Counted from the first letter of the stretch, positions 249 through 38,562 are shown. The stretch: DNA of 41,547 nucleotides from Verrucomicrobiales bacterium (GCA_002715965.1 PBAL01000059.1:1-41547), one strand, 5' to 3'. Notes: generated by a model not told the origin, from the letters alone. Numbers and translations are program-made.

Positions 249-908
249 ATGACTGAACTGTTTCAAGAATCCATTCGGGTAATCAACTTTCCCCTCAGCC
301 TGCTGATGATTGTCATCATTATCTATTGGTTGCTGGCGCTGGTTGGATTTTTGGACTTCGACATTCTGGATGGCAGTGCGGATCTGCACGTGGATGGGGG
401 CGATGTTCACGTGGAAGGTGATCTGCAGGCGGATTTCGATGGGTCTCATGGTGGCGGGATCCTCGGAGGTATCTCAAGCTATCTGCATGTGGGAGACGCA
501 CCACTCACCGTGATTCTTAGCGTAATGATCATTTTCATGTGGTCGTTCTCGTTGCTGCTGAACCACTACTTCAACTCCGACGATTCCTTCTTTTTGGGGC
601 TGCTCTTCTTGGTCCCGAACATTATCGTGAGCGTCCTGCTTAGCGGTATCATAATCATCCCAGTGGCCGTGTTTTTTAAGAAACTCTCGGGCAGCGAGAA
701 TGTTAAGAAGAACGCTTTGGGGGACATGTGCACAGTCATCAGTCAAACAGTTGATTATGACAGCGGCCAGGCCGAAGTGGCACAAGAGGGGGCTCCAATT
801 GTGGTCAATGCACGGACAAGCAATCCGAACGAAGTTTTGACGAGGGGGCAAAAAGCGGTCGTCGTCCGCAAGAACGACAACGGAACATACGTAATCAAAT
901 CCATATAG
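249..908 (+). CDS. NfeD-like (YuaF/YqiJ-type) membrane protein.
   Basis: The N-terminal part has multiple hydrophobic helices. There is an acidic/His-rich loop (DGSADLHVDGGDVHVEGDLQADFDGSHGGG). The C-terminus is a soluble OB-fold-like segment (GQAEVAQEGAPIVVNA...GQKAVVVRKNDNGTYVIKSI) typical of NfeD short homologs. The gene ends 12 bp before a flotillin gene, which is the canonical NfeD-flotillin pairing. An AGGA ribosome-binding site precedes the ATG. Confidence 0.6.
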   Translation: MTELFQESIRVINFPLSLLMIVIIIYWLLALVGFLDFDILDGSADLHVDGGDVHVEGDLQADFDGSHGGGILGGISSYLHVGDAPLTVILSVMIIFMWSFSLLLNHYFNSDDSFFLGLLFLVPNIIVSVLLSGIIIIPVAVFFKKLSGSENVKKNALGDMCTVISQTVDYDSGQAEVAQEGAPIVVNARTSNPNEVLTRGQKAVVVRKNDNGTYVIKSI

Positions 909-920
909 GAATAAATCATC

Positions 921-3056
921 ATGATATTGGCAATTTGGGAAACAGTTGGTTGGGTAGCCGGTGGCGGGCTCGTCGTCGTGCTAGTCGGGGGATTCATCTT
1001 GGCAGTCACGCTTTATCGGAAGGTGGAGCAGGGTACTGCACTCGTTACCACGGGCATGCGAGGCACGAAAGTGTCGTTCAAGGGGGACGTGGTATTTCCC
1101 GTCGTGGAACGGGGCGAATACATGGACATCTCTGTAAAGACCATTGAGGTTTACCGCCATGGTGTCGACGGCTTGGTCTGTAAGGACAATATGCGGGCAG
1201 ACATCAAGGTGAAATTCTACATCCGCGTAAATAGCACGGTGGACGATGTTCTCAAGGTCGCACAATCCGTCGGCTGCGCCCGTGCCTCAGACCCTAAGGC
1301 CTTGTTCGAACTCTTCGACGCGAAGTTCTCCGAAGCATTGAAGACCGCGGGTAAACAGTTCGACTTCGAAGCCCTGTTTACTTCACGCGAGGAATTCAAA
1401 TCTGAAATCCTGAAGGTGATTGGCACGGACCTGAATGGTTACATCCTCGAGGACGCAGCGATCGACTACCTGGAACAAACTCCCAAGGACAAGCTCGATC
1501 CTACAAACATCCTAGATGCCGAGGGCATCAAGAAAATCACGGAAATCACCTCTCTCGAAGCGGTGAAGACCAACAAGGCCGAGCGCGACAAGGAAAAAAC
1601 CATCCGCAAGGAAGATGTCGAAGCACGCGAAGCCATTCTCGAACTCGATCGTCAATTGGCGGAGAGTGAGGAACGCCAGAAGCGCGAAGTGGCGTCTATC
1701 ACTGCCCGCGAGGAGGCCGAGGCGAAGAAGATTCAGGAGGAGGAACGCCTCAAGTCCGAGACCGCCCGCATTAATGCTGAGCAGGAAATTGGCATTGCGG
1801 ACGAGAATAAGCAGCGGCAAATCATTGTCGCCCAGAAGAACAAGCAGCGCACCGAAGCCATCGAGACCGAGCGTGTTGAGAAGGACCGCATGCTCGAGGT
1901 CACGGAGCGTGAACGGATCGTGACGCTGGCTGAGATCGACAAGACCAAGGTCGTCGAGACTGAGCAAAAGAACATCCAGGAAGTCATTCGCCAACGCGTG
2001 GAACTGGAAAAGAACGTTGTCGCCGAACAGGAGCGCATCAAGGACACCGAAGCGTTTGCCGCTGCGGAACGTGAGAAGAAAGTCATCATCACCCGCGCCG
2101 AGCAGACTGCCGAAGAAGCCTTGGTCAAGGACATCAAGGCTGCCGAAGCCGCCAAGCGTGCTGCCGAGCTGAAGGCCGAAGAGGACAAATACAAGGAAGT
2201 CACGGAAGCCCAGGCCGGCAAGGAATCCAGCCTGCTCAAGGCTGAAGAGATGCTCACCATTGCCGATGCGGCGGAGAAGTCCGCCGTCAAGAACGCGACG
2301 GCCAAGAAGCACGACGCCGAAGGTGTCACGGCGATGGAGGCTGCCCGCGGATTGGCCGAAGCCCAGGTGATCACCGCCCAGGCCGATGCGAAGGAAAAGG
2401 ACGGCACGGCCATGGCCAACGTCTCACGCCTGCAATACGAAGCCGACGCCAAGGGTATTACCGACAAGGGCAGTGCCGAGGCCAACGTGGCTCAACAGAA
2501 GTTCACGGCGGAAGCCAACGGTATCACCGAGAAGGCCGAAGCCATGAAGATCTTCAACGAAGCCGGTCGCGAACACGAAGAGTTCAAGCTGGAACTCAAC
2601 AAGGAACGCGACATCGAACTCGCCGAGATAAATATCCGTGGAGACATCGCAACCGAACAGGCCAAGGTCCTGGGCGAAGCGCTCAAGAGTGCGAACATCG
2701 ATATTGTTGGCGGTGACGGTCAGTTCTTCGACCAGATGATCAATGCGATCTCACAGGGCAAGTCCGTCGATCGTGTGATCGACAACAGCAGGGCTCTCAC
2801 CGACGTGAAGGAGACCTTCTTCAACGGCGATCCGGATTACTTCAAGGCGAAGTTCTCCGAGTGGGTGAAGCAGTTTGGAATCAGCAGCGACGACGTCCGC
2901 AACCTCAGCATCGCTGGTGTTCTTGGTAAGATGATTGCCAAGGCCGACGGCGCGGAAATCAAGTCCACGCTGGAACAGGCCCTGTCTGCTGCCGAGGAAG
3001 CCGGATTGGCGAACAAACCCGCCAAGGCGTTGATTTCGTCGAAAGGGAAGAAGTAA
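921..3056 (+). CDS. Flotillin-like SPFH/band 7 domain protein (FloT/YuaG-type), 711 aa.
   Basis: There is an N-terminal TM helix (ILAIWETVGWVAGGGLVVVLVGGFILAV). The SPFH-like region follows (TGMRGTKV...VFPVVERGEYMDISVKTIEVYRHGVDGLVCKDNMRADIKVKFYIRV). The rest is a very long Glu/Ala/Lys/Arg-rich coiled-coil with flotillin-type EA repeats. An AGGAA ribosome-binding site sits 9 nt upstream. Confidence 0.85.
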   Translation: MILAIWETVGWVAGGGLVVVLVGGFILAVTLYRKVEQGTALVTTGMRGTKVSFKGDVVFPVVERGEYMDISVKTIEVYRHGVDGLVCKDNMRADIKVKFYIRVNSTVDDVLKVAQSVGCARASDPKALFELFDAKFSEALKTAGKQFDFEALFTSREEFKSEILKVIGTDLNGYILEDAAIDYLEQTPKDKLDPTNILDAEGIKKITEITSLEAVKTNKAERDKEKTIRKEDVEAREAILELDRQLAESEERQKREVASITAREEAEAKKIQEEERLKSETARINAEQEIGIADENKQRQIIVAQKNKQRTEAIETERVEKDRMLEVTERERIVTLAEIDKTKVVETEQKNIQEVIRQRVELEKNVVAEQERIKDTEAFAAAEREKKVIITRAEQTAEEALVKDIKAAEAAKRAAELKAEEDKYKEVTEAQAGKESSLLKAEEMLTIADAAEKSAVKNATAKKHDAEGVTAMEAARGLAEAQVITAQADAKEKDGTAMANVSRLQYEADAKGITDKGSAEANVAQQKFTAEANGITEKAEAMKIFNEAGREHEEFKLELNKERDIELAEINIRGDIATEQAKVLGEALKSANIDIVGGDGQFFDQMINAISQGKSVDRVIDNSRALTDVKETFFNGDPDYFKAKFSEWVKQFGISSDDVRNLSIAGVLGKMIAKADGAEIKSTLEQALSAAEEAGLANKPAKALISSKGKK

Positions 3057-3071
3057 TTGAGGTCCGTGCAG

Positions 3072-3093
3072 CCTCCCGCCATTGGGCGGGAGG
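3072..3093 (+). promoter_or_regulatory. Perfect 9-bp stem hairpin (cctcccgcc-attg-ggcgggagg) 16 nt after the flotillin stop. A second small GC hairpin lies at 3100-3112 (gggcc-aac-ggccc).
   Basis: Read directly. No U-tract follows either stem. The 124-bp spacer to the next gene ends in cccttttttgaatcATG. Confidence 0.3.
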
Positions 3094-3180
3094 TAGCAAG
3101 GGCCAACGGCCCGTCCCCATATTCAGCCCAGGCCGACCGCGGGAAGGCTTGGGGAAAACGGCACAACCCTTTTTTGAATC

Positions 3181-6100
3181 ATGGCTGAAGAACCTCAAGA
3201 CGAAGCCACAATCGAAGAACCCAAGCCCGATCAACCGGTTCTGGAGGGCGGGACTTACGAGATCATTCGCAAGCGCCTCCAGGATCGCTCAGCCGATCTC
3301 CGTGGACGCCTGGGCCAGCTGAATGATCTGCGCAAGGAAGTCTTCGGTTCGATCGAGACCGTTCTCCTCCGCGCCGACCGTATCACGACCGAGCACAACT
3401 GCATCCCTCGCGACATGATGCCGGTCGGGGAAAACCTGTTCCTGTTCGGTTACAACGTCCAGTTCGGCCTCAAGACCACGATTAAGCTAGAGGACGTCTT
3501 CGCGGTTTATGAGAGCACCGGGGAACAGTTTCAACAGGTCGGACTGGATCTGCTCAGTGATGAGCGCTTCAACGACGATTTTCAGAGCCTCTACAAATAC
3601 TACAAGAACACGAAGTTCGTTAAATTCTCCTTCATAGGACCCTACCTGTTCATGGTCTTCCGGGTCGGCGCGGAAGTGAATGACGTCAAGACCTTCAAGT
3701 GGAGCGTCGATGGCGACAAGCTGGTCTACGTCGATAATCGTTCGGATCACGAATTCAGGTATCCGGCGCAGTACGAATTCGATTGGAAACGGACCCATCG
3801 CGAACTTCATCGGTCCGGACTTTCACCCCATATCGCCATCGCCGATCGCGCCTTTGTGGAGTGCATCAATGGCGACCTCACCATCAAGGTCGAGGACAAC
3901 ACGGAGAGTGGCGAGGGAATCTATTCGGAACCGGTCCAGCACAAGGACCAGACCCTTGATGATGCGGAGATTTACTTCGCGCTATGCGGCAACCTGATCC
4001 TGCTCAAAATCAAGCCCTTCCAGGAGAAGGAATTCCGCTACTTCATCTTCAATGACAAGATCAAGAGCGTGCATCGCGTGGACGGAATCGCCCATGCGGC
4101 CGTTCTTCTGCCGGAAGATCAGGGGATCATCTTTTCCAATGGTTACTATCTCCAGACCGGCGTCCTGAAGCAGTTCGAAAGCGACCGGACGGACATGATG
4201 TTCGAGCGAGTCACGCAGTCGAGCAACGGTGAGGATTATCTGTACGTCTTCTACAACCGGATGGCGGGCGACTATGTGCTGCTCTCCTACAACCTCATCA
4301 GCCAGGCGGTGGAAAGCCCAATCTGGTGTCACGGCTTCTCGCTCTACGACGATGGCCAGCTCGTCTACTTCAAGGCCCAGAGCGAACCGCAAAAGCACCA
4401 CACCCTTCAGCTCTGGCAGACACCTTTCGTCGCGGCCGGGCATGAACTTCACAAGAACACCGATTCCTTCCTCTACAAGATCGGCAATCGCGATGTCGTT
4501 CGTTGTATGGCTGAGTGTCAGGACATCCTGAACCTGATGGAGAAGGACGAATCCTACGCCGGCCTCTACGTGGACATCGTCAAACTCGCCAACGACATTT
4601 CCGATTCCTACTTCTGGGTCGACAAGGAAGAGGCCTTCAATCTCAAGGAAGTCCTCGGCCAGATCAAAGAAACGGCCAGCAAGGCCGTTGATGAATTTCA
4701 AAAGGTCCTTCGCATCCGTTCCGAGACTGGTTCAGAACTCAAGCGCGTCCGCAAAGACGGCGAGGGATTATTTCATGCCCTACGGACGGAGCGCATTGAG
4801 ACCGTCGATGGTTTTGTTGAGAAGTTGGCCGCTCTCCGGCGCCTGCGAGGCGAAACGATTTCTCTGAAGGATCTCCGCTACATCGATCTCACGGCGGTTG
4901 AGAAATTGGAGATTACCATCGCGGATTTCTCCGAGCAGCTATCCCGCCAATGCGTTGAGTTTCTCCTGTTGCCCGAGTCACTCGACCCGTATCGCGTTCG
5001 TGTGGACGAGCAGTCCAAGGCGGTCGACGAAATCCAGAAGGTCGCTGAGGGCCGTGAGCTTGAGGAAGCCATTGGTAAGTCCGGTGAGGAATTGGAGATG
5101 CTCATCGAGATCGTCACCAATCTGAAGATCGACGACGCCACGGAGACAACGCGCATCATCGACGGAATCACTTCGATCTACACGACTCTGAACCAAGTCA
5201 AGGCCGCCGTTCGCAAGAAGTTCAAGAGCCTGATGCAGGTTGAAGGCGCTGCGCAGTTCAATGCGGAGATCAAGCTGCTCAACCAGTCGGTGGTTAATTA
5301 CCTCGATCTCTGCGACGCGCCCGCTCGTTGCGAGGAATACCTGAACAAGGTGATGGTCCAGTTTGAGGAACTGGAAGGCCGCTTTGCCGACTTCGACGAA
5401 TACGTCGTTCAACTCGCCGACAAACGCACCGAGGTCTACGAGGCTTTTGAAGCGCGCAAGCTGAATCTCGTCGAGGCCCGCAACAAGAAGGCCAACGCGC
5501 TCATGACTTCCGCCGAGCGCATCCTCAAGGTCATCAAGCATCGCGTCGATGGAATGAAATCCATCAACGACATCAACGGCTACATGGCTAGCGATCTGAT
5601 GATCGAGAAGGTGCGGGGAACGATCGATGAACTGGTCGAACTCGAGGATACCGTCAAGGCTGACGACCTGCAGGGCCGCCTGAAGGCGATTCAGCAGGAC
5701 GCCGTCCGTCAGCTGAAGGACAAGCTCGAACTCTTTGCCGACGGCGACAACATCATTTCGCTCGGCAAACACCGCTTCAACATCAACACCCAGCCGCTCG
5801 ATCTCACCATCGTCAATCGCGACGGCGAGATGTGCATGCATCTTACGGGCACGAAGTTCTTCGACGGAATCACCGACGAGGGATTCCTGGGAACGCGGGA
5901 CGTCTGGAAACAGGAAGTTGTTTCCGAGAACGGCTCGGTTTACCGCGCTGAGTATCTCGCATGGAAGATGTATGAGAGCGCTTCCGCCGAGAAGCGGTTG
6001 GGTGAACTGGACGGACTCTCTGACGAGGAACGCATCAAGCAGGTGCAGACTTTCATGGGCCCGCGCTACGCGGAGGCGTACACCAAGGGCATTCACGATC

Positions 6101-8481
6101 ACGATGCCGCTGCGATTTTGCGGGAATTCATCAACATCGATCTCGCGTTGGGACTCGCTGGCTACGCGCCAACACCTCGGGCCTGTGCGAATATCTTCTG
6201 GAATCGCTTTTGCGACGAGGAAACCAAGGCCCTCTGGTCGGCCAAGCTCCAGGGATTTGGGGCGAAGAATCGTTTGTTCCCGGGAGATGAGAAGAACGCC
6301 GCATACATCGGGAAGCTCGCCGGGTTGTTGCGCGATTTCAATGAGACGCATTCGTTCTTCCCGGACAGTGCCATCGATGATGCTGCCGAATACCTTTTCT
6401 TCCAATTGACGGATGGCGTGGTCTTCGTGATCAGCAAGGAAGCCGCGGATCTTCACGAGGCGTTCACCGAGCATCTCCTTGAGAAACACATCCGCGAAGA
6501 ATTTGACCAGGCACATCAGGCATTGGCCGAACATCCGGCCAGCGAGTTTGAAATCATTCGTGACTGGTTGCGTGGATTTTTGTGTGGCGGCACGGTGCGT
6601 GGTGGGGAAGAAGGTGATGTCGTGCCCGTCGCACTATCCGATTCCCATCTGGACGAAGTTGCCGGACTCTTGTTCTGCGACAACTTCGATCCGCGCGGAG
6701 TTGTCTCCGCACCAACGAAGGTCGTCATCGAGAAGATGATGGGCGCTCACCAGTTGATTCCGGAGAGCGGTTACACCTTCGACTACCTCGAGTTCCGCGA
6801 CCGTCTCCGGAGATACGACAACGATGTCGTTCCGAAATACGAGCAGTACATTGATCTGAAAAAGCAGGTCATTGACGACGCCCGCGACGATCTTCGCCTG
6901 GAAGAATTCCAGCCGCGCGTGCTGACCTCCTTTGTGCGCAATCGCCTCATCGACGACGTCTATCTGCCGATGATCGGTGACAACCTCGCCAAGCAGGTTG
7001 GTGCGGCCGGCGACAAGAAGCGCACGGATCTGATGGGGTTGCTCCTTCTCATTTCGCCTCCCGGTTACGGCAAGACGACCTTGATGGAATACATTGCCAA
7101 TCGCCTGGGCATCATCTTCATGAAGATCAACGGTCCGGCGCTTGGACATCATGTGACCTCTCTTGATCCGACCGAGGCGAACAACGCAGCTGCCCGCGAG
7201 GAGGTCGAGAAACTCAACCTCGCGCTGGAAATGGGTGACAACGTGATGCTCTATCTGGATGACATCCAGCACTGCAATCCGGAGTTCCTTCAGAAGTTTA
7301 TCTCCCTCTGCGATGCCCAACGAAAGATCGAAGGTGTCTACAAGGGGCGTTCACAGACCTATGACCTCCGCGGTCGAAAGGTTGTCGTGGTGATGGCGGG
7401 CAATCCCTACACGGAGAGTGGAGACAAGTTCCGCATCCCGGACATGTTGGCCAACCGTGCCGACACGTACAACCTTGGCGACATTCTTGGCGGCCATGCC
7501 GACGCTTTCAAGATGAGCTATCTGGAGAACGCCGTGACCTCCAATCCGGTTCTCCAACAACTCTCCAACAAGAGCCAGAAGGACATCCAGAATTTCATCC
7601 GTATCGCCGAGACCGGCACGAAGGATCATGTGGACTTTGAGGCAAATTACTCGGTCGAGGAAATCAACGAGATCGTTTCGGTCATCCAGAAGCTCCTGCA
7701 CATCCGCGACGCCGTGCTCGATGTGAATCTTGAGTACATCGCCTCTGCTGCGCAGTCCGACGATTACCGAACCGAACCCGCATTCAAGTTGCAGGGCAGC
7801 TATCGAAACATGAACCGCATGGCCGAAAAAGTCCTGCCGATCATGAACGACCAGGAAGTTCACGACCTCGTGATCGATCACTACGAGAATGAATCACAGA
7901 CGCTGACCACCGGTGCGGAAGCCAACGTCCTCAAGTTCAAGGAATTGATGGGTGTGCAGCGTGAGGAAGACGCAGCGCGCTGGACCGACATCAAGAAGAC
8001 CTACAAGCGAAACCAGCTTCTCGGCAGCACAGATGCCAGCGATCCGGTCGGTCGCGTGGTGGCGCAACTCACCACCTTCAGCGAAGGCCTGGACGGTATT
8101 CGCTCCACGATCGAAAAAGCCGTCGAACAGCCGGAAGAGAAGCCCGACATCAAAGTCGATCTCAGCGAGATGACCGGAATCATCGAGACCTTGGGCAAAG
8201 ACGTGCGTGATGGATTGAGCGCGTGGAAGCTTCAGGACCGAAAAGACATTCAGGAATTCGTGAAACGCATCGGCGCGGTGAACGGCGGGCTCGCCAACCT
8301 GAAGAAATTGATCGAAACCTACATGTCTGAACGCAAGGCGCAGCGTGCTGGTGACAGTAACTCCGTGGATCTCAGCGGTGTCTCCGTATCGGCCGAGACG
8401 TTGGATGAGATTTACAACCTCATCGACACAGATCCCAAGGCCAAAGCTGCGGCCAAGCAGGCAAAGAAAAAGAAAAAGTAG
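3181..8481 (+). CDS. Giant (1766 aa) protein with a C-terminal MoxR-like AAA+ ATPase module. The N-terminal ~1250 aa have no recognisable function. The tail is poly-Lys.
   Basis: The Walker A motif is LLLISPPGYGKTTLMEY (nt ~7045-7095). The Walker B motif is NVMLYLDDIQHCNPEF (nt ~7240-7290). The sensor-1/NP motif is KVVVVMAGNPYTESGDKFRIPDMLANRADTYNL, which matches the MoxR/AAA_3/AAA_5 pattern (V.A.QNP.E..G...LP.A.LDRF). The C-terminus is DPKAKAAAKQAKKKKK. It is a single uninterrupted ORF. Confidence 0.7.
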   Translation: MAEEPQDEATIEEPKPDQPVLEGGTYEIIRKRLQDRSADLRGRLGQLNDLRKEVFGSIETVLLRADRITTEHNCIPRDMMPVGENLFLFGYNVQFGLKTTIKLEDVFAVYESTGEQFQQVGLDLLSDERFNDDFQSLYKYYKNTKFVKFSFIGPYLFMVFRVGAEVNDVKTFKWSVDGDKLVYVDNRSDHEFRYPAQYEFDWKRTHRELHRSGLSPHIAIADRAFVECINGDLTIKVEDNTESGEGIYSEPVQHKDQTLDDAEIYFALCGNLILLKIKPFQEKEFRYFIFNDKIKSVHRVDGIAHAAVLLPEDQGIIFSNGYYLQTGVLKQFESDRTDMMFERVTQSSNGEDYLYVFYNRMAGDYVLLSYNLISQAVESPIWCHGFSLYDDGQLVYFKAQSEPQKHHTLQLWQTPFVAAGHELHKNTDSFLYKIGNRDVVRCMAECQDILNLMEKDESYAGLYVDIVKLANDISDSYFWVDKEEAFNLKEVLGQIKETASKAVDEFQKVLRIRSETGSELKRVRKDGEGLFHALRTERIETVDGFVEKLAALRRLRGETISLKDLRYIDLTAVEKLEITIADFSEQLSRQCVEFLLLPESLDPYRVRVDEQSKAVDEIQKVAEGRELEEAIGKSGEELEMLIEIVTNLKIDDATETTRIIDGITSIYTTLNQVKAAVRKKFKSLMQVEGAAQFNAEIKLLNQSVVNYLDLCDAPARCEEYLNKVMVQFEELEGRFADFDEYVVQLADKRTEVYEAFEARKLNLVEARNKKANALMTSAERILKVIKHRVDGMKSINDINGYMASDLMIEKVRGTIDELVELEDTVKADDLQGRLKAIQQDAVRQLKDKLELFADGDNIISLGKHRFNINTQPLDLTIVNRDGEMCMHLTGTKFFDGITDEGFLGTRDVWKQEVVSENGSVYRAEYLAWKMYESASAEKRLGELDGLSDEERIKQVQTFMGPRYAEAYTKGIHDHDAAAILREFINIDLALGLAGYAPTPRACANIFWNRFCDEETKALWSAKLQGFGAKNRLFPGDEKNAAYIGKLAGLLRDFNETHSFFPDSAIDDAAEYLFFQLTDGVVFVISKEAADLHEAFTEHLLEKHIREEFDQAHQALAEHPASEFEIIRDWLRGFLCGGTVRGGEEGDVVPVALSDSHLDEVAGLLFCDNFDPRGVVSAPTKVVIEKMMGAHQLIPESGYTFDYLEFRDRLRRYDNDVVPKYEQYIDLKKQVIDDARDDLRLEEFQPRVLTSFVRNRLIDDVYLPMIGDNLAKQVGAAGDKKRTDLMGLLLLISPPGYGKTTLMEYIANRLGIIFMKINGPALGHHVTSLDPTEANNAAAREEVEKLNLALEMGDNVMLYLDDIQHCNPEFLQKFISLCDAQRKIEGVYKGRSQTYDLRGRKVVVVMAGNPYTESGDKFRIPDMLANRADTYNLGDILGGHADAFKMSYLENAVTSNPVLQQLSNKSQKDIQNFIRIAETGTKDHVDFEANYSVEEINEIVSVIQKLLHIRDAVLDVNLEYIASAAQSDDYRTEPAFKLQGSYRNMNRMAEKVLPIMNDQEVHDLVIDHYENESQTLTTGAEANVLKFKELMGVQREEDAARWTDIKKTYKRNQLLGSTDASDPVGRVVAQLTTFSEGLDGIRSTIEKAVEQPEEKPDIKVDLSEMTGIIETLGKDVRDGLSAWKLQDRKDIQEFVKRIGAVNGGLANLKKLIETYMSERKAQRAGDSNSVDLSGVSVSAETLDEIYNLIDTDPKAKAAAKQAKKKKK

Positions 8482-10258: not shown

Positions 10259-11068
10259 ATGTGCTTCTCCGCGGCTCCTTGCAATATCGGCGATGGAAGT
10301 TTGGAATCTGCGTCCGAGAGATTTGGTGTCGTAAGAAGCATCGCCGGGAATATCGATGCGCTCCGTGATGTGGATCAGAAGTTTAAGGAGATGGGGGGCG
10401 ATCGGAGGTATTCGCTGGGCCAGGTCGTTGGCCTTTACCCGTGGGTGAACGAATGTGTGGCTCTGCTACGCGAGGAGAACTGCTTGGCAATGGCACATTA
10501 CGTGGACAGGGAGGTCGTCACTGCGGGGCACTTCATAGGAAATACCACGGCACGTCTCGTAGAGTCTGTGACGTATGCGATGAAATCGCTGTCTTCTGCT
10601 GGGTACGAATATTTCGAGGCAATGTCCATTGAGGCAGTCTTCGATGGTGTCGCCTTCCTTTCAATCAACGAGTTTCGAACGCACTCGCTCTACGACAACG
10701 AGCGGGTCAAAGAGGCGTTCGCGGCATGGCCTCACAAGGTCGTGTTTCACACTTCTTATCTGGAACGTCGTATTATTTGTGAGGATCTGACGACGGGAGA
10801 CCTGGATGAACTGCACCATTTGAGACAAGGAGTTCGGGTGCAAATAACACCGGGTGGAATTGGGAGCGTGAGCGGTGGTTCGATCAACAAGCGCCGTCCG
10901 GTGGCGGTGGTGTATGATAGCGATGAGGAGACTGTAGAGTTTGTGAAGGCGGAATTCGATTTGGAGAGTATCATTTCGCGAATGCCGAGCGATCATCCCG
11001 CGTCGCCCGAGTTCCTGCGGGGCTGGGAGTACGAGTGTTGGCGTGCTGACCCTGCGACACATTGGTGA
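10259..11068 (+). CDS. Hypothetical protein with an uncertain start. Spacing of motifs weakly resembles a degenerate metallophosphoesterase.
   Basis: The ORF is divergent from the sulfatase. Segments IAGNIDAL ... GGDRRYSLGQVVGLYP ... AGHFIGNTT loosely resemble the GDxHG / GDxxDRG / GNHE blocks, but the metal ligands are not conserved. No confident family call is possible from sequence alone. Confidence 0.3.
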   Translation: MCFSAAPCNIGDGSLESASERFGVVRSIAGNIDALRDVDQKFKEMGGDRRYSLGQVVGLYPWVNECVALLREENCLAMAHYVDREVVTAGHFIGNTTARLVESVTYAMKSLSSAGYEYFEAMSIEAVFDGVAFLSINEFRTHSLYDNERVKEAFAAWPHKVVFHTSYLERRIICEDLTTGDLDELHHLRQGVRVQITPGGIGSVSGGSINKRRPVAVVYDSDEETVEFVKAEFDLESIISRMPSDHPASPEFLRGWEYECWRADPATHW

Positions 11069-15648: not shown

Positions 15649-16839
15649 GTGGCGAGCAAGCCTGCCATCCTGACCGTTGTTGAAAACCTGCCGGTGCCGT
15701 TGGATCGCCGGGTCTGGCAGGAGTCGTGCGCGTTGCGGGATGCGGGCTATGAAGTGGTGGTGATTTGTCCGCAAATGCGCGGCTATACCGAGCCGGAAGA
15801 GGTGATCGATGGCATCCATGTTTATCGCCACTGGATCAGTGACGAGGCGAGTGGGATCGGTGGTTTCATCCGCGAATACGGGTCGGCATTGATTGGCGAA
15901 ATGATGCTCGCGGTGAAGGTGTGGCAACGGCATCGCTTCGAGGTGGTTCATCTCTGCAACCCGCCGGACTTGTTGTGGATGGTTGCCCTGCCGTTCAAGC
16001 TGCTGTTTGGCGTGAAGGTGATCTATGACATTCACGATGTATGGCCGGAGATGTTCGAGGCGAAGTTCGGCCGGCGCGGTTTGTTGTATTGGGCGGTAAG
16101 GATCTTCGAACGCTGCACCTACTTCTGCACAAACATCGCCTTGGCGACAAACGAATCGGTCAAGGCCGTAGCAATGGAGCGTGGAGCGATGCGCGATGAA
16201 TGTGTCTATGTGGTGCGGACCTCACCGAAGATCGTTGCCGCGAATGCAACTGCTGATCCTTCACTACGCAAAGGCAGGAAATATCTCGTGGGTTATGTTG
16301 GCGTGATGGGCAACGCCGATGGTGTGGATCTGCTGTTGCGGGCGATCGCGCATGTCGTGCACGAGCTGAAACGGGACGATGTTCAATTTATGTTGATGGG
16401 AACCGGGCCGGAGTTCGATGAGTTGCAGAGCCTGAGGCGCGATTTGTATTTAGAAGAACACGTGGAAATGCCGGGCCGGGTTTCCGACGAATTCCTTTTC
16501 TCGGTGTTGAAGACCATGGATCTGGGTGTGTCCTCCGATCCGCGCAATGGCTACAACGATCACTGCACGATGAACAAGGTGTTGGAATATATGGCTTTTG
16601 GAAAAGCACAGGTGATGTTTGACCTGACGGAAGGGCGGGCATCAGCGGGGGAAGCATCGGCATACGTGCGGGAGAATGATCCAGCCCAATTGGGCGACGC
16701 CATGGTTGCGTTGTTGGACAATCCCGCAGAAAGAAAGCGGATGGGCATGATCGGGCGTGAACGATTGACGACGCAATTGAACTGGGAGCGTTCGGTGGAC
16801 CAGTTGTTGAAGGCATATCGGGCAGCGTTGAACGGTTGA
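15649..16839 (+). CDS. Family GT4 (GT-B fold) glycosyltransferase with a GTG start.
   Basis: The N-terminal half has the GT4 architecture. The C-terminal half reads VGYVGVMGNADGVDLLLRAI ... MLMGTGPE ... EHVEMPGRVSDEFLFSVLKTMDLGVSSDP ... NKVLEYMAFGKAQVMFD, matching the E-x7-E/EAMA-G-x-P donor-binding region. Its stop overlaps the exosortase start (ATGA at 16836-16839). Confidence 0.8.
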   Translation: MASKPAILTVVENLPVPLDRRVWQESCALRDAGYEVVVICPQMRGYTEPEEVIDGIHVYRHWISDEASGIGGFIREYGSALIGEMMLAVKVWQRHRFEVVHLCNPPDLLWMVALPFKLLFGVKVIYDIHDVWPEMFEAKFGRRGLLYWAVRIFERCTYFCTNIALATNESVKAVAMERGAMRDECVYVVRTSPKIVAANATADPSLRKGRKYLVGYVGVMGNADGVDLLLRAIAHVVHELKRDDVQFMLMGTGPEFDELQSLRRDLYLEEHVEMPGRVSDEFLFSVLKTMDLGVSSDPRNGYNDHCTMNKVLEYMAFGKAQVMFDLTEGRASAGEASAYVRENDPAQLGDAMVALLDNPAERKRMGMIGRERLTTQLNWERSVDQLLKAYRAALNG

Positions 16840-17864
16840 TGAGTGCGGATTCCCAAGGCGTTGCGAACGAGTCGTTGATGGCTGAGATCAGTGCGTTTCT
16901 CTCACGCTTGCCGGATAAGTGTGCGTTTGGTGTTCTGCTGCTGATGTGGGTGGCGCTGTTTCATTTCCTCGGCAACTCGACTCTGGGTTACGTCGATACG
17001 CCGAGCCTCTTTGGTTGGATGGATTATTCGTATTCCAACCGTGCGGATGACGAACACGGCTACTTCGTTCCGCTGTTGGTTCTGCTGATTCTCTGGTGGA
17101 AGAAAGATGAGTTGGAGAGCACGCCCAAGCGTGTCTGGGTGGGAGGATTGTTGCTGCTGTTCATCGCCATTGCGTTGCATCTGGTCGGGTTTCAAGTGCA
17201 ACAGGCACGCATTTCAATCGTTGCCTTCTACTCAGGGATCTACGCATTGATGGGCGTGGTGTGGGGACCGCATTGGTTGCGCGCGACTTTCTTCCCCTGG
17301 TTCCTCTTTGCGTTCGCCGTTCCGCTCGGCGCACTGAGTGACAATTTCAGTCAACCACTTCGAGTTGTGGCAACCGACGTCACAGTGGTGATTGCGAAGA
17401 TCGTGTTGGGTCTGCAGGTGATTCAGGAGGGGACGAGCATTCTGGATCCGGACGGCAAGTATTCTTATGAGGTGTCCGCGGCGTGCAGTGGGTTGAGAAG
17501 TTTGACCGCAGTGTTGGCGTTGTCATTTGTGTTCGGGTTCCTTTGGTTCAAGCAATGGTGGAAGCGCGGCTTCATGGTGTTGATGGCCTTTCCCCTCGCA
17601 GTTGCGAGCAACGTGGTGCGGTTGACGATGATCATCATTGCCGCGGATATATTCGGACAGGAGGCGGGGACCTTCGTGCACGACAATGCGATCCTCAGTT
17701 TGATTCCTTATCTGCCGGCGCTTGCCGGCTTGTTCGTGCTGGGTTGGCTGTTGGATTTGAAGCCGCGTGAGCAACGCGATGACAAGCGGCAAGTCCGCCT
17801 TCGACGCAAACGCAGGAAGCTGAAGGGCCGTTGGCCATACGTGGCGAGGAGGTCGCATGGCTAA
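16836..17864 (+). CDS. Exosortase (Xrt/EpsH family transpeptidase), 342 aa, 8-TM core.
   Basis: The catalytic Cys block is YEVSAACSGLRSLTAVLAL (C-S-G-x-R). The NxxR block is AVASNVVRLTMIII. Multiple TM helices are present. The C-terminus is basic. The gene is translationally coupled to both the upstream GT4 gene and the downstream EpsI gene. Confidence 0.85.
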   Translation: MMSADSQGVANESLMAEISAFLSRLPDKCAFGVLLLMWVALFHFLGNSTLGYVDTPSLFGWMDYSYSNRADDEHGYFVPLLVLLILWWKKDELESTPKRVWVGGLLLLFIAIALHLVGFQVQQARISIVAFYSGIYALMGVVWGPHWLRATFFPWFLFAFAVPLGALSDNFSQPLRVVATDVTVVIAKIVLGLQVIQEGTSILDPDGKYSYEVSAACSGLRSLTAVLALSFVFGFLWFKQWWKRGFMVLMAFPLAVASNVVRLTMIIIAADIFGQEAGTFVHDNAILSLIPYLPALAGLFVLGWLLDLKPREQRDDKRQVRLRRKRRKLKGRWPYVARRSHG

Positions 17865-18567
17865 GGGGCAGTTGATGTTCGTTGTCGCGGGTCTGATGAT
17901 TGTGCTGGCGGGCGGTGCGTTGGTTTACATGAAGGATCATCAACGCCTGGGTGAACCGGGTGTTCGCGTCGCGGATGTGTCAATCGAGGATGAGGAGGGT
18001 AATCGCGTTGGTGACACGAGTGTCTATCTGCCTGAGGTGGATGGCTTCAATTCCAAGGCGATGGAGATTCAGTCCGTGGTATACGAGTGGTTGCCGAAGG
18101 ACACGGTCTACGGCCGTCGCGTTTACCAGGCCGGGGATGGATTCTGGCTGGAATGCAATGTGGTGTTGATGGGCGCCGATCGCACGAGCATTCATCAGCC
18201 TCAGTACTGTCTGCCAGGGAGCGGTTGGCAGATTGTGGCGGATGAAGAGAACTCGCTTCGCATTGGGAAGCGGAAGTTGCCGGTCAATCGAATCGTCGCG
18301 CGAAAGGCGCTTGAGGCGAAGCACGGAACCGCCAGCAACGTTTCGGTGGTGATGCTGTATTTCTTCGTCACGAAAGGGGAGTGGACGGCTGATCACAACG
18401 AACGGATGTGGCGTCAGGCGGTGGAACAATTGACAACCGGTGTCCTGCAGCGTTGGGCCTATGTCGCCTGCTTCGCGCTCTGTCACGAGGGCAGGGAGGA
18501 CGCGACGACGGAGCGGCTTTTGCAGTTTCTTTCCCAGGCCGCACCGGAGTTCGTGGAACTCCCGTAA
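17857..18567 (+). CDS. Exosortase-associated EpsI-family protein.
   Basis: There is an N-terminal TM helix (LMFVVAGLMIVLAGGALVYM). The EpsI signature block is present (IHQPQYCLPGSGWQI, matching HxPExCLPGxGW). Size is about 236 aa. The gene overlaps the exosortase stop by 8 nt. Confidence 0.65.
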   Translation: MAKGQLMFVVAGLMIVLAGGALVYMKDHQRLGEPGVRVADVSIEDEEGNRVGDTSVYLPEVDGFNSKAMEIQSVVYEWLPKDTVYGRRVYQAGDGFWLECNVVLMGADRTSIHQPQYCLPGSGWQIVADEENSLRIGKRKLPVNRIVARKALEAKHGTASNVSVVMLYFFVTKGEWTADHNERMWRQAVEQLTTGVLQRWAYVACFALCHEGREDATTERLLQFLSQAAPEFVELP

Positions 18568-18629
18568 ATGTTAATCTTGCGTAAAGTGTCGGTATTCGGG
18601 GGGTAGATTGTATTTACGGTTGGCCCGCA

Positions 18630-20039
18630 TTGTGCGTAGCTAGGCGGTCGATGTTACGTCGCCAACGCCAGATCCAGACATCCCTCTCGCAGTTTGTTGA
18701 TGCGGGGTTGTTTGCCTTGGGATTTTGGCTGGCCCATTGGCTTCGTTCCAACGCGGTTGTTTATTTTCCCAATCTTTCTCCAATTTACGACTTCTCTGGC
18801 TACGTCTGGTTGTGGCTGTTCATTATCCCGGTAGCACCGCTCCTGTTGAAGGCTCAGGGCTTTTACAACCGGCCGATGCTGTTCTCTCGGCGGGAAACGG
18901 CCTGGGTTGCATTGAAGACGGGAACAATGCTGGCAATCGGTGTGATTTCCGTGCTGTTCATCATGCGCGAGGAACTGGCTCGATCGGTGATCATTCTCTT
19001 TGGCGCTATTGGCAGCGTCATGGTGGTGATCAAGGAAGAGCTGTTGCTGCGCTGGCATGGCAGCGAATTTGGTCAGGCACAGATGCGTCGGCGCGTGGTC
19101 CTGATTGGTGATGCGGACGAGACTGAAAAGATGCGGGAGGATTATCGGAAACGCCTGGGTGGTGCGTTGGAAGTGCTGGCTGAACTGCGAATTGATGAGG
19201 CTTCACCACAGAAGCTGAGTGAGTTGCTTCACGAACGTTCGGCGAACGGCGTGATTCTGAGCACGGGCCACGCGTTGTTTGATCAGGTGGAACGTGTGAT
19301 TGAGATCTGCGAGTTGGAAGGTGTTGAGGTTTGGCTGCTGGCGGATTTCTTTCGCACTCAAATCTCTCAAACCACGGTGGATGACATGATGGGGCGGCCG
19401 ATGCTGGTCTTTCGATCTGCTCCGGAAGCTTCGTGGCAGGGCGTTGCCAAGCAGGTGATCGATGTCGTGGGCGCAGCTGTGGCAGTGATTGGATTGTTCC
19501 CGTTTCTCGTGCTGTTTGGCTTGCTGGTGAAACTCACGTCAAAGGGTCCGATCCTCTTCCGGCAGGAACGAAGCGGCCTGAATGGTAAACCATTCACCAT
19601 GTTGAAATTCCGTACGATGGTTACGAATGCCGAGCAACGAAAAGCGGAGCTGGAATCGTTTAATGAGATGGAAGGCCCCGTCTTCAAGGTATCGAACGAT
19701 CCGCGCGTGACGGCCTTGGGAAGGTGGTTGAGGAAATACAGCATCGATGAGCTGCCGCAGTTGTGGAATGTCTTGAGAGGGGAAATGAGCCTGGTTGGTC
19801 CGCGACCGCTTCCGGTGGATGAAATCAAGCGCATCAATGACCCGGGTCATCGTCGACGCTTGAGCGTGAAGCCCGGTCTCACCTGTCTCTGGCAGATCAG
19901 TGGCCGCAACGAGGTGAACAGCTTCAAGGACTGGGTGACCCTGGATCTCGAGTACATCGACAACTGGTCGTTGTGGCTTGACTTAAAGATCCTGCTCAAG
20001 ACGATTCCGGTAGTCGTTCTCGGAACAGGCGCGAAGTAG
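18630..20039 (+). CDS. Exopolysaccharide-priming polyprenyl-phosphate sugar-1-phosphate transferase (WbaP/EpsB 'bacterial sugar transferase' family).
   Basis: Four N-terminal TM helices are followed by a cytoplasmic linker and a fifth TM helix. The C-terminal catalytic domain is KGPILFRQERSGLNGKPFTMLKFRTM ... DELPQLWNVLRGEMSLVGPRP ... PGLTCLWQISGR, which is canonical for the family. Confidence 0.85.
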   Translation: MCVARRSMLRRQRQIQTSLSQFVDAGLFALGFWLAHWLRSNAVVYFPNLSPIYDFSGYVWLWLFIIPVAPLLLKAQGFYNRPMLFSRRETAWVALKTGTMLAIGVISVLFIMREELARSVIILFGAIGSVMVVIKEELLLRWHGSEFGQAQMRRRVVLIGDADETEKMREDYRKRLGGALEVLAELRIDEASPQKLSELLHERSANGVILSTGHALFDQVERVIEICELEGVEVWLLADFFRTQISQTTVDDMMGRPMLVFRSAPEASWQGVAKQVIDVVGAAVAVIGLFPFLVLFGLLVKLTSKGPILFRQERSGLNGKPFTMLKFRTMVTNAEQRKAELESFNEMEGPVFKVSNDPRVTALGRWLRKYSIDELPQLWNVLRGEMSLVGPRPLPVDEIKRINDPGHRRRLSVKPGLTCLWQISGRNEVNSFKDWVTLDLEYIDNWSLWLDLKILLKTIPVVVLGTGAK

Positions 20040-20096
20040 TTCGCCTTTCCGCTCAGGTCTTGAGCATTCCGACTGCAAATCGCGGTCGATCATCCC

Positions 20097-21077
20097 ATGG
20101 CAGCCAAAAAGAAGAAAAAAACCAAAAAAACGTCAAAAAAACCCGTTTCCGTCGTCACTGGCGCAGCGGGCTTTCTTGGGTCTCATTTGGCAGATTTACT
20201 GTTAAAGAAGGGGCATAGAGTAATCGGTATCGATAACTTTGTGACAGGTAGGGTGGAAAACATCGATCATTTGGCTGGCAATGGTGATTTTCGGTTCATT
20301 CAGCAGGATGTGACCGAATTCTTGTTTCTCCAAGGTGATGTGAACCATGTTTGGCACTTCGCGTCGCCGGCCAGCCCGATTGATTATGCGCACTTGCCGA
20401 TTCAGACGTTGAAGGTGGGTTCATTGGGCACCCACAAGGCCTTGGGGCTGGCAAAGGAGAAGGGCGCTCGGTTCTTTCTGGCTTCGACGTCGGAGATCTA
20501 CGGCGACCCGCTGATTCACCCGCAAAACGAGGATTATTGGGGGAATGTGAGCACGATTGGCCCCCGCGGTTGCTACGACGAGTCAAAGCGTTTTGCTGAG
20601 GCGCTGGCGATGGCCTATCACCGGGAACACAAGGTTGAGACGCGGATTGTGCGGATTTTCAACACCTACGGTCCGCGCATGCGGTTGAAGGATGGACGGG
20701 TTGTTCCAGCCTTTGTCAGTCAAGCGTTGGAGGGCAAACCCATCACGGTGTTCGGTGATGGTTCGCAGACGCGAAGTTTCTGCTATTGCTCGGATCTCAT
20801 TGATGGGATCTATCGGTTGATGATGAGTGACTACGATCTGCCGGTGAACATTGGCAATCCGAACGAGATGACGATCCTTGAATTTGCCCAGGAGATCATC
20901 CGCGCGACCAGCTCGAAAAGCCGGATCATTCGCAAGCCATTGCCCACGGATGATCCCAAGCAACGCAAGCCCGACATCACCCGGGCAAAGTCTATTCTCA
21001 AGTGGCGGCCCAAGGTTAAACTGGCGGACGGTTTGGAGCGGACGATCGACTACTTCAAGAGGCGCATTGAGTCTTAG
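20097..21077 (+). CDS. UDP-glucuronate decarboxylase (UDP-xylose synthase; extended SDR) with an unusual Lys-rich N-terminal extension.
   Basis: The Rossmann block is [53 protein letters not shown]. This matches the UXS pattern (TGGAGFxGSHL...DNFFTGRKxNxxHxxxxPxFExIxHDV). The YxxxK catalytic region is [11 protein letters not shown]. The N-terminus reads [16 protein letters not shown]. Confidence 0.8.
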
Positions 21078-23116: not shown

Positions 23117-23134
23117 CAATCGAAAGGAAACCCA

Positions 23135-24184: not shown

Positions 24185-24193
24185 TTAATTTTC

Positions 24194-25174: not shown

Positions 25175-25213
25175 TTTCTTCGGCGATTTCTGCAAAATCC
25201 GCCAACCGGTTCA

Positions 25214-28042: not shown

Positions 28043-28193
28043 TTCGAATAGCTTGGTTTGCAGGTGACTCTCAATTGCCCCGCAAAACCAGCAAAAGAGA
28101 CGATTTTCAGCCTCTACGTAGTAATCTGTATCGCACCTCACCCAAGAAACCGTAGACAACAAATTGGGCCTCTGATAACTCTTAGTTGACCAT

Positions 28194-30083: not shown

Positions 30084-30084
30084 T

Positions 30085-34439: not shown

Positions 34440-34460
34440 TCGGGACTGATTACGGCAGAC

Positions 34461-38489: not shown

Positions 38490-38562
38490 AGCGCGGCCGG
38501 TCGTCGCTCCCCTGCTTCTGGTTAGTTTTGGTTAGAGCCAACCCCGCTGTGCTGTTACACAC

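Follow-up and report, generated by a model that had tools for sequence, protein, structure and literature searches.

In the YqiJ-YqiK pair of E. coli and the YuaF-FloT pair of B. subtilis, the gene of a small NfeD-like membrane protein is directly followed by a gene for a flotillin-like SPFH protein; we know of no dedicated ATPase gene in either pair. The best-understood pairing of an SPFH protein with an AAA+ machine is HflK/C-FtsH, in which an SPFH cage encloses an AAA+ protease. MoxR-family proteins, AAA+ ATPases of about 250-500 aa, normally work with a VWA/MIDAS partner: NorQ and NorD act on nitric oxide reductase, and CbbQ and CbbO act on Rubisco. In ESCRT-III/Vps4, and in bacterial pairs of PspA with a two-domain AAA+ protein, an AAA+ ATPase is paired with a polymer that remodels membranes. 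The closest known system to the locus analyzed here is an operon described by comparative genomics (Ravi et al. 2024, mSystems 9:e00847-23, bioRxiv 2020; PMC11237479), exemplified by Dokdonia donghaensis ANH61663.1. Its parts are given there as CesT/Tir, PspA, a YqiJ/YuaF protein, a band-7/flotillin protein and a beta-propeller/coiled-coil/AAA+ ATPase; both a full form, with a CesT/Tir-PspA dyad, and an abbreviated form are described, and the operon is placed in the phage-shock (PspA) membrane-stress network (PMC11237479). In that paper the ATPase is simply a 'novel AAA+', whereas its predicted fold is here nearest to MoxR (NorQ/CbbQ).

We analyzed a 41,547-nucleotide stretch of Verrucomicrobiales DNA (the window), which carries three consecutive genes on one strand (Table 1): ORF1, encoding a YqiJ/YuaF-type membrane protein, ORF2, encoding a flotillin-like protein, and ORF3, encoding a propeller/coiled-coil/AAA+ ATPase. 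The coordinates, the common strand and the length of the ORF2-ORF3 spacer are as the preliminary description gave them, and ORF1 and ORF2 are 12 nt apart. The window contains no PspA or CesT/Tir gene, with only 248 nt of sequence preceding ORF1, an absence that we count against the model proposed below. Because the upstream CesT/Tir-PspA dyad of the full form is missing, the window represents the abbreviated form of the published operon. Thus the module itself is not new: it is a PspA-less, abbreviated version of a widespread operon. The earlier view of the system as uncharacterised holds for experimental work, none of which was found in our literature search, but not for the operon as such, which had already been published.

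Table 1. Features of the locus (nucleotide positions count from the first letter of the window; residue numbers refer to ORF3)
Feature	Nucleotides	Strand	Length or residues	Description or basis
ORF1	249-908	+	219 aa	3-TM YqiJ/YuaF-type (DUF1449) NfeD-like membrane protein
ORF2	921-3056	+	711 aa	Flotillin-like SPFH protein
Intercistronic ORF2-ORF3 spacer	3057-3180	+	124 nt	Two GC-rich stem-loops
Strong stem-loop	3061-3104	+		Perfect 9-bp core CCTCCCGCC-ATTG-GGCGGGAGG at 3072-3093
Second stem-loop	3127-3153	+		CCCAGGCC (3127-3134) pairs with GGCTTGGG (3146-3153), read from fold
ORF3	3181-8481	+	1766 aa	Soluble giant AAA+ ATPase
Beta-propeller, core of DUF3686	3361-4419	+	61-413	AF2, mean pLDDT 84, about 27 strands
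Long helical bundle/coiled-coil region	4468-5739	+	430-853	AF2 model, Pfam
DUF7902	4978-5226	+	600-682	Within the helical region
Middle domains	5752-6894	+	858-1238	AF2, pLDDT mostly >90
MoxR-like AAA+ module	6928-7980	+	about 1250-1600	
Walker A	7054-7080	+	1292-1300	SPPGYGKTT
Walker B	7258-7263	+	D1360-D1361	LDD
Low-confidence helical tail	8128-8478	+	about 1650-1766	pLDDT 40-65, poorly conserved

Conserved linkage and membrane-stress context

ORF1 has three hydrophobic segments, in agreement with the YqiJ/YuaF component of the published operon, an acidic D-x-D-rich loop following TM1 and a soluble C-terminal domain. Taken alone, it has no significant Pfam match (YqiJ_N, E = 0.063; NfeD, none), while 10 of 27 positional orthologs match YqiJ_N (best 3.6e-8) and one of the 27 matches NfeD (E = 0.008). 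The sole PDB match of the ORF1 profile, a weak one (E = 0.32), is the OB-domain structure of YuaF (2k14), and the Hymenobacter ortholog is annotated by PGAP as 'DUF1449 family protein'. ORF2 comprises an N-terminal membrane anchor, which is its one hydrophobic region, an SPFH domain, a long E/A-rich coiled coil and a conserved C-terminal domain, the layout expected of the band-7/flotillin component. It is longer than its counterparts in the YqiJ-YqiK and YuaF-FloT pairs, and on its own has no Pfam match, being too divergent for direct detection by Band_7 or Flot. Band_7 is nevertheless matched by 4 of 28 orthologs (best 7e-14), the ortholog profile matches the SPFH protein QmcA (8z5g, E = 4.4e-5), the NCBI record of the identical protein reads 'flotillin [Verrucomicrobiales bacterium]', and the database names of relatives include 'flotillin family protein' and 'YqiK' (NCBI, JGI).

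We compared 80 loci, 75 of them informative and the other five with less than 300 nt of upstream sequence. A full-length flotillin homolog (38-63% identity) lies directly upstream of the ATPase gene, on the same strand, in 70 of the 80 loci, and 58 loci also have a YqiJ/NfeD-like ORF1 homolog upstream of the flotillin gene. The module is found in Verrucomicrobiota, Planctomycetota, Bacteroidota, Desulfobacterota, Kiritimatiellota, Omnitrophota, Clostridia and Chitinispirillaceae, and additionally in Gammaproteobacteria, Actinomycetota and Deinococcota. The three-gene module envisaged in the preliminary description is thus conserved and, because flotillin adjoins the ATPase gene in 70 of the 75 informative loci, which come from eight phyla or more, the outcome that would have spoken against it, ATPase homologs lying mostly away from flotillin genes, is not what we observe. 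Five informative loci do have no adjoining flotillin gene (clearly L013, L032 and L049, probably L007 and L020), and these count against the model. The flotillin and ATPase genes overlap or lie less than 25 nt apart in 8 loci. We infer co-transcription of the module. Some Bacteroidota, however, have 0.6-2.4 kb of unrelated genes between flotillin and ATPase; co-transcription of the two is therefore not obligatory, a further point against the model.

The module is recurrently linked to PspA and other membrane-stress genes, and the occurrence of this PspA linkage in several phyla is a further likeness to ESCRT-III/Vps4. In 16-18 Bacteroidota loci, the genes immediately upstream are a divergent HTH-S24 regulator, then CesT_Tir_1, then PspA/IM30, which is the full form of Ravi et al. 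2024, including its divergent cHTH-protease regulator. Plasmid pQBR103 carries the module in fusion with a PspA/DUF2491/DUF350/DUF1190/glutathionylspermidine-synthase operon, and in Vibrio campbellii the module is followed by a PLD-like gene and TelA; the former matches a published variant and the latter is the published PLD variant. In Proteus mirabilis a divergent LemA gene and a TPM-domain gene adjoin the module. Among Verrucomicrobiales, ORF3 is followed by a PspA-like gene and a classical AAA gene in two close relatives (L083, L084), and no Pfam-recognised PspA lies upstream in the two closest (L081, L082). The 80 loci revealed no further conserved neighbour cluster beyond PspA, CesT/Tir and the HTH-S24 regulator, and no conserved VWA/MIDAS partner near the module, the latter a point against remodelling. 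In the window itself, the neighbours are of housekeeping or envelope type: a sulfatase, an exosortase locus and pilus genes.

Domain architecture of the giant ATPase

The preliminary description held that only the last ~500 residues of ORF3 could be assigned, leaving residues 1-1250 without assignment. Neither statement survives: Pfam assigns DUF3686 (39-478, E = 1e-181) and DUF7902 in this region, and the predicted structure resolves it into a beta-propeller and helical domains (Table 1). A helix (23-55) stands ahead of the propeller, for which Foldseek against PDB returned generic beta-propellers only (DCAF1 WDR, CyRPA, PON1 and the prolyl-oligopeptidase propeller). A propeller of this type occurs only at the N-terminus of proteins of 1600-1930 aa (726 clusters at 50% identity). 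The middle region comprises a small beta domain (858-896), an all-helical domain (922-1136), a small alpha/beta element and, as a connector, a long helix (1202-1238). The AAA+ module dominated the fold searches, and residues 858-1238 remained without an assigned fold. More than 5500 homologs were found, with identities of 47-58% across phyla, and the family is conserved over its full length (60% mean column identity across about 1800 columns). A hydrophobicity scan of ORF3 detected no hydrophobic or TM segment, and the Pfam scan detected no peptidase, VWA, nuclease, helicase or DNA-binding domain. The likeness to HflK/C-FtsH, an SPFH scaffold paired with an AAA+ machine, is an analogy only: FtsH is a membrane-anchored, classical-clade AAA protease, whereas ORF3 is soluble, MoxR-like and devoid of a protease domain.

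Structure comparison of the AAA+ module gave MoxR, dynein and midasin as neighbours and NorQ and CbbQ as best matches, which places the predicted fold nearest to the MoxR members. The DDIQH... motif following Walker B and the NP after sensor 1 would likewise resemble the MoxR type. A beta-hairpin (1382-1395) precedes the sensor-1 strand (VVVMAGNP, N1408), and R1426 is invariant. Profile scores are less specific: within the Pfam AAA/AAA_5 matches at 1288-1411, AAA_5 scores 24.2 bits (cut-off 22), PF00004 AAA scores higher (30 bits) and RuvB_N scores 23.9, and no MoxR model was matched in the NCBIfam search. ORF3 also departs from MoxR proteins in its size, its roughly 1250 N-terminal residues, the absence of a VWA gene from its conserved neighbourhood and its Walker B DD. 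This DD, in place of DE, may signify slow, switch-like hydrolysis, which we count against remodelling, as we do the beta2-alpha2 loop, in which sequence reading found no aromatic residue. It is in this loop that the aromatic pore-loop motif of classical AAA unfoldases lies; a threading mechanism is therefore not implied for ORF3.

Proposed function and alternatives

We consider it rather probable that the ATPase of the flotillin operon performs ATP-driven remodelling at flotillin/PspA assemblies, or at client membrane complexes, under envelope or lipid stress. Like other SPFH proteins, the flotillin would oligomerise at the inner membrane, on its cytoplasmic face, and ORF1 would be its partner in the membrane. 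The ATPase, presumably in the form of an AAA+ ring, would be recruited to this assembly, probably through the propeller and the helical arm, and would use ATP for the assembly, disassembly or remodelling of the flotillin scaffold, of PspA/ESCRT-III-like polymers or of client membrane complexes. The analysis establishes what the genes are, how the proteins are built from domains, that the linkage is conserved and that PspA and membrane-stress genes recur beside the module; the physical interaction, the substrate and the oligomeric state in this scheme we infer. The interpretation in the preliminary description is, as a whole, partly supported.

A more specific version of the remodelling model is tentative, and we would sooner doubt it than adopt it: the giant ATPase may be a dedicated motor of a flotillin cage. 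It would form a ring of about 1.2 MDa, docked by its propellers and helical arms on the flotillin/NfeD assembly, and would open, close or recycle the cage or pass it to PspA/ESCRT-III polymers. If true, this would give HflK/C-FtsH a cytoplasmic counterpart and ESCRT-III/Vps4 a bacterial analogue, and would provide a biochemical handle on bacterial flotillin function.

How might a MoxR-like module be used otherwise? The ATPase could be a maturation chaperone of MoxR type that inserts a cofactor into, or activates, a single membrane complex, the flotillin being a platform only and neither scaffold nor PspA being remodelled. The AAA_5 score above threshold, the JGI name 'MoxR-like ATPase' and the pore loop without an aromatic motif are in line with such a role. 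We nevertheless judge it unlikely, given that neither a VWA/MIDAS partner nor a candidate client enzyme is conserved beside the module and that, as additional neighbours, only PspA, CesT/Tir, PLD, TelA, LemA/TPM and polyamine genes recur.

It seems to us improbable that the module is an anti-phage or abortive-infection system, with the propeller as the sensor of an invader and with the ATPase and flotillin permeabilising or protecting the membrane. In its favour are the large size of the NTPase and its repeat-type, sensor-like domain, the discovery of PspA as a phage-induced protein, the divergent LexA-like HTH-S24 regulator in Bacteroidota and the flat cross-phylum identity (47-56%), which, with the megaplasmid copies, is compatible with horizontal transfer. 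However, PADLOC (PADLOC-DB 2.0) gave no significant match for the three proteins, only P-loop-level similarity (mad8, E = 4e-4; TRIP13, E = 0.013), no homolog occurs among 50,697 phage records, and the genes surrounding the module in the window are no defence island. The very high full-length conservation is likewise unlike that of fast-evolving defence sensors.

That ORF3 is a DNA-repair ATPase lying beside flotillin without functional meaning is hardly credible. Orthologs bear the PGAP name 'DNA repair ATPase', the Pfam entry for DUF3686 reads 'ATPase involved in DNA repair', and a weak RuvB similarity lies around Walker A. But this similarity spans only about 45 P-loop residues (22-24 bits against thresholds of 282-299), the Pfam scan detected no nuclease, helicase or DNA-binding domain, MoxR, dynein and midasin are the neighbours in structure, the flotillin adjacency is kept across phyla in a context that is membrane-related throughout, and our literature search found no paper supporting the name.

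The ATPase C-terminus and the intercistronic hairpins

The poly-Lys tail singled out in the preliminary description is present, ORF3 ending in ...AKAAAKQAKKKKK (nt 8440-8478), but it is no feature of the family. A run of at least four K/R within the last 25 residues was found in one of 72 proteins from the fetched loci, the window's own, and 13 of 120 close relatives have such a run; many orthologs end about 100 residues earlier. The tail is thus lineage-specific.

The two GC hairpins without a U-tract reported for the spacer were borne out by folding and by a shuffle test: the minimum free energy of 3050-3190 is -60.8 kcal/mol (z = -2.66), and none of 200 shuffles was equally stable. No T-run directly follows either stem; a T6 run lies at 3171-3176, 17 nt beyond the second. 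A consensus scan of the spacer called neither a sigma-70-like promoter nor an intrinsic terminator, and the hairpin sequence occurs once within the window. Three close relatives (L081, L083, L084) have stems at the same position with unrelated sequence. Among the 61 loci with a flotillin-ATPase spacer of at least 25 nt, 32 have an unusually stable hairpin directly 3' of the flotillin stop codon, again with unrelated stem sequences. This recurrence would fit attenuation or differential mRNA stability: the hairpin probably cuts read-through or shields the upstream mRNA, which would keep the scaffold in excess over the ATPase. The recurrent hairpin is an addition of the present analysis to the published description of the operon.

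Identity of the three genes and their linkage

Reading of the open reading frames in the window confirmed three genes, all on the forward strand: the NfeD-like ORF1, the flotillin-like ORF2 and the giant AAA+ ATPase gene, ORF3. Searched directly with Pfam and NCBIfam models, neither ORF1 nor ORF2 gave a significant match, so we identified both through orthologs and profiles. The NCBI entry identical to ORF2 carries the name 'flotillin', database names for its relatives are flotillin family protein or YqiK, the SPFH protein QmcA is matched (E = 4.4e-5) by a profile built from 28 positional orthologs, and four of these orthologs match Band_7 (best 7e-14). In ORF1, three hydrophobic segments are accompanied by a soluble domain at the C-terminus and a conserved loop of acidic D-x-D type; YqiJ_N matches 10 of 27 orthologs, the PGAP name of the Hymenobacter ortholog is 'DUF1449 family protein', and the sole PDB profile match is a weak one, to the YuaF NfeD-like OB domain (E = 0.32). 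Ortholog, profile and domain evidence make all three labels, NfeD-like, flotillin and MoxR-like, supportable, with ORF1 belonging specifically to the YqiJ/YuaF type. The acidic loop of ORF1 is an alternating D-x-D-x-D run at residues about 36-70, after the first TM helix, reaching up to about 40 residues; in the ortholog alignment its length is variable and its acidity constant. Possible ligands of this loop are cations and basic lipids or peptides.

Features of the module, of the ORF3 protein and of the surrounding window
Feature	Position	Strand	Details
ORF1	249-908	+	219 aa
ORF2	921-3056	+	711 aa; 12 nt after ORF1
First spacer stem-loop	3061-3104	+	long; perfect GC-rich core at 3072-3093
Second spacer stem	3127-3153	+	predicted fold
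ORF3	3181-8481	+	1766 aa; 124 nt after ORF2
ORF3 helix	residues 23-55		AlphaFold2 model
ORF3 beta-rich domain	residues 61-413		AlphaFold2 model
ORF3 helical bundles	residues 430-853		AlphaFold2 model
ORF3 small beta domain	residues 858-896		AlphaFold2 model
ORF3 all-helical domain	residues 922-1136		AlphaFold2 model
ORF3 connecting helix	residues 1202-1238		AlphaFold2 model
ORF3 AAA+ module	residues about 1250-1600		AlphaFold2 model
ORF3 helical tail, low confidence	residues about 1650-1766		AlphaFold2 model
Exosortase-type polysaccharide locus	15649-21077		GT4 glycosyltransferase, exosortase EpsH, DUF3485, Bac_transf sugar transferase, NAD-dependent epimerase/dehydratase
Pilus/secretion-like region	21242-40840		PilM-like gene; TPR-secretin gene at 25214-28042

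When one representative genome of each GTDB species was scanned, at least 566 stretches with ORF3 relatives emerged, and a protein search gave more than 5500 clusters of homologs at 90% identity. The linkage counts rest on 80 fetched loci out of those at least 566. ORF3 homologs do not lie mostly away from flotillin genes: at 70 of the 80 loci the gene immediately 5' of them, in the same orientation, encodes a full-length homolog of ORF2 (38-63% identity), indicating that the linkage of flotillin and giant ATPase in the preliminary description is real. Among the ten other loci, five have less than 300 nt of upstream sequence, two further ones show no match despite about 1.4 kb upstream, and L013, L032 and L049 clearly lack a flotillin gene. 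An ORF1 homolog lies 5' of the flotillin gene at 58 loci. The gap between flotillin and ATPase genes has a median of 175 nt, and at 8 loci the two genes overlap or are less than 25 nt apart. Some Bacteroidota carry genes inserted between the two; we rejected these as a fourth component because they are mutually unrelated. The module extends to Gammaproteobacteria (Proteus mirabilis, Vibrio campbellii and the Pseudomonas fluorescens plasmid pQBR103), and ORF3 homologs occur also in Photobacterium, Halomonas, Streptomyces, Nonomuraea and Deinococcus.

The spacer between ORF2 and ORF3 (3057-3180) folds with a minimum free energy of -60.8 kcal/mol (z = -2.66), and none of 200 shuffled sequences was as stable. 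Neither stem is directly followed by a T-run, and a consensus scan of the spacer found no promoter-like or terminator-like site. The hairpin is single-copy in the window, and on that ground we rejected it as a dispersed REP-like repeat. A stable hairpin after the flotillin stop is shared by the window and three close relatives, with unrelated stem sequences; more broadly, at 32 of 61 loci the folding energy of the 60 nt 3' of the flotillin stop ranks in the lowest 5% when compared with coding windows of that locus. The post-stop hairpin is compatible with an attenuator inside the operon or an mRNA-stabilising element, either of which would keep the scaffold at a high ratio to the ATPase; it is no proof of co-transcription. 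GC-rich stem-loops without T-tracts are found also at both ends of the window: one at 4-33, read as AGTCGGGCAACGC-TTC-GCGTTGCCGACT, and one at 41412-41464 with arms of 25 nt each. Hairpins of this kind may commonly punctuate the intergenic regions of this genome.

Gene context and the published operon

Ravi et al. (2024, mSystems, PMC11237479; bioRxiv 2020) described an operon of four elements in all, joining a CesT/Tir-PspA dyad with a 3-TM YqiJ/YuaF protein, a band-7/flotillin protein and a beta-propeller/coiled-coil/AAA+ ATPase, together with a Proteobacterial PLD variant and 'abbreviated operons' without the dyad, called 'more widely distributed' (PMC11237479). The Dokdonia donghaensis row of that paper's supplement agrees gene for gene with our Bacteroidota loci, at 16-18 of which CesT_Tir_1 (E = 1e-56) and PspA/IM30 (E = 1e-40) precede the module, along with a divergent HTH-S24 (LexA-like) regulator. 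On the P. fluorescens SBW25 megaplasmid pQBR103 (L085, NC_009444.1 85437-104383), nine genes follow one another on the same strand, with the module coming last: PspA/IM30, rhomboid protease, DUF2491, DUF350, DUF1190, glutathionylspermidine synthase family, YqiJ-like, SPFH and 'DNA repair ATPase'. This locus unites both PspA-linked operon classes in an experimentally studied host. In V. campbellii (L088:13840-15618) the start of a PLD-like (HKD) gene abuts the stop of the ATPase gene and TelA comes next, and in P. mirabilis (L087:3696-5476) the module is preceded by a divergent gene pair that encodes LemA and a TPM-domain protein.

Two Verrucomicrobiales loci with an ORF3 70-74% identical to that of the window carry PspA-like and AAA genes 3' of ORF3 on the same strand (L083:8033-10656 and L084:9598-12289). 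The PspA/IM30-like protein is divergent (271-273 aa), with a Pfam E-value of 5.6e-6 that is below threshold; in the AAA protein (594-597 aa) a single classical AAA domain is recognisable, within the C-terminal half. Neither the window nor any of the other 82 loci searched carries this pair, which is similar to the 'PspA plus two-domain AAA+' pairs that Ravi et al. mention (PMC11237479). We rejected as its PspA-like counterpart a 269-aa window ORF at 10259-11068, between a convergent sulfatase and a GDSL hydrolase, which has no Pfam match and gave E = 0.13 by BLASTP against the L084 protein.

The module is real and widespread, and the window is another instance of the abbreviated form of a published operon. 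The preliminary description called the system uncharacterised: we found no experimental paper on an ORF3-type ATPase in the literature, and nothing on DUF3686, PF12458 or 'DNA repair ATPase' with flotillin, nor does a P. aeruginosa SPFH paper mention such an ATPase, but the operon had already been defined by comparative genomics (PMC11237479). The value of the window is that of a pointer to an uncharacterised system, not a discovery.

Architecture and possible role of the giant ATPase

Pfam assigns to ORF3 a DUF3686 domain (residues 39-478, E = 1e-181), a DUF7902 domain (residues 600-682) and an AAA/AAA_5 P-loop domain (residues 1288-1411). We obtained two AlphaFold2 models from 69-sequence alignments, with mean pLDDT of 84 and 81. 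Against the PDB, the beta-rich domain matches only generic beta-propellers, and sequence searches align the Walker A region alone, to p97 and RuvB. Residues 858-1238 have no assigned fold, since two fold searches covering them were dominated by the AAA+ module. The DUF3686 propeller domain, which forms 726 clusters at 50% identity, does not occur outside this architecture; its full-length members have 1600-1930 aa. As expected for its superclade, the model places a beta-hairpin (1382-1395) upstream of the sensor-1 strand. Walker A reads SPPGYGKTT, and Walker B has DD (D1360-D1361, nt 7258-7263) in place of the usual DE, invariant in all 69 aligned members, which may make ATP hydrolysis slow or regulated. 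The loop that bears the aromatic pore-loop motif in classical AAA unfoldases has no aromatic residue. Both ORF3 and ORF2 contain long antisense ORFs, the longest of 518 aa (e.g. 4978-6534, reverse strand), and in an all-against-all comparison the antisense ORFs of these genes form one cluster across 76 loci; they seem to mirror the conserved sense frame and not to be genes.

The flotillin-ATPase observation holds, and its interpretation is partly supported. The C-terminus of ORF3, AKAAAKQAKKKKK, was proposed to dock the protein on the membrane; the poly-Lys tail is not conserved among homologs and so cannot serve for docking throughout the family. No hydrophobic segment was found in ORF3, and the anchor and charge pattern of ORF2 predict that its body lies in the cytoplasm, where soluble ORF3 would reside. 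SPFH proteins build large membrane-attached oligomers. Recruitment of the ATPase to flotillin/NfeD assemblies is suggested by conservation of the operon, by the overlap of genes at some loci and by the linkage to PspA. The propeller and helical arm of the ATPase would make the contact, and under envelope or lipid stress ATP would drive remodelling, whether of the scaffold, of PspA polymers or of client complexes. Relatives of the MoxR type act as remodelling chaperones rather than as unfoldases that thread their substrates, and the missing pore-loop aromatic and the Walker B Asp-Asp would fit a remodelling or switch-like role. It is also plausible that ORF3 is a MoxR-type maturation chaperone for one specific client, although neither a VWA partner nor a gene for a client is conserved in the neighbourhood. 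For an anti-phage system, the high full-length conservation of ORF3 would be unusual, since fast-evolving defence sensors typically lack it; this reading finds no support from PADLOC and no homolog in phage records. The sole basis for a DNA-repair ATPase is the database name 'DNA repair ATPase', which is misleading and needs revisiting.

The function of bacterial flotillins is still poorly defined, and in the ORF3 family flotillin has an enzyme as partner that is dedicated to it and strongly conserved. Some cultured hosts that carry the module (P. mirabilis, V. campbellii, P. fluorescens SBW25 with pQBR103, and Flavobacteriia), which we take to be genetically tractable, make the flotillin-PspA membrane-stress link testable.

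Other genes of the window

The window contains no PspA gene and no defence island. The neighbours of the module are the convergent sulfatase, the GDSL hydrolase, an exosortase/polysaccharide locus, whose DUF3485 protein is presumably of the EpsI family, and pilus-like genes. Within and after the last group are interleaved large ORFs with no Pfam match (23135-25174 and 28194-34439), and a 1342-aa protein has an InlB B-repeat as its sole match; the region may be an uncharacterised pilus or secretion locus.
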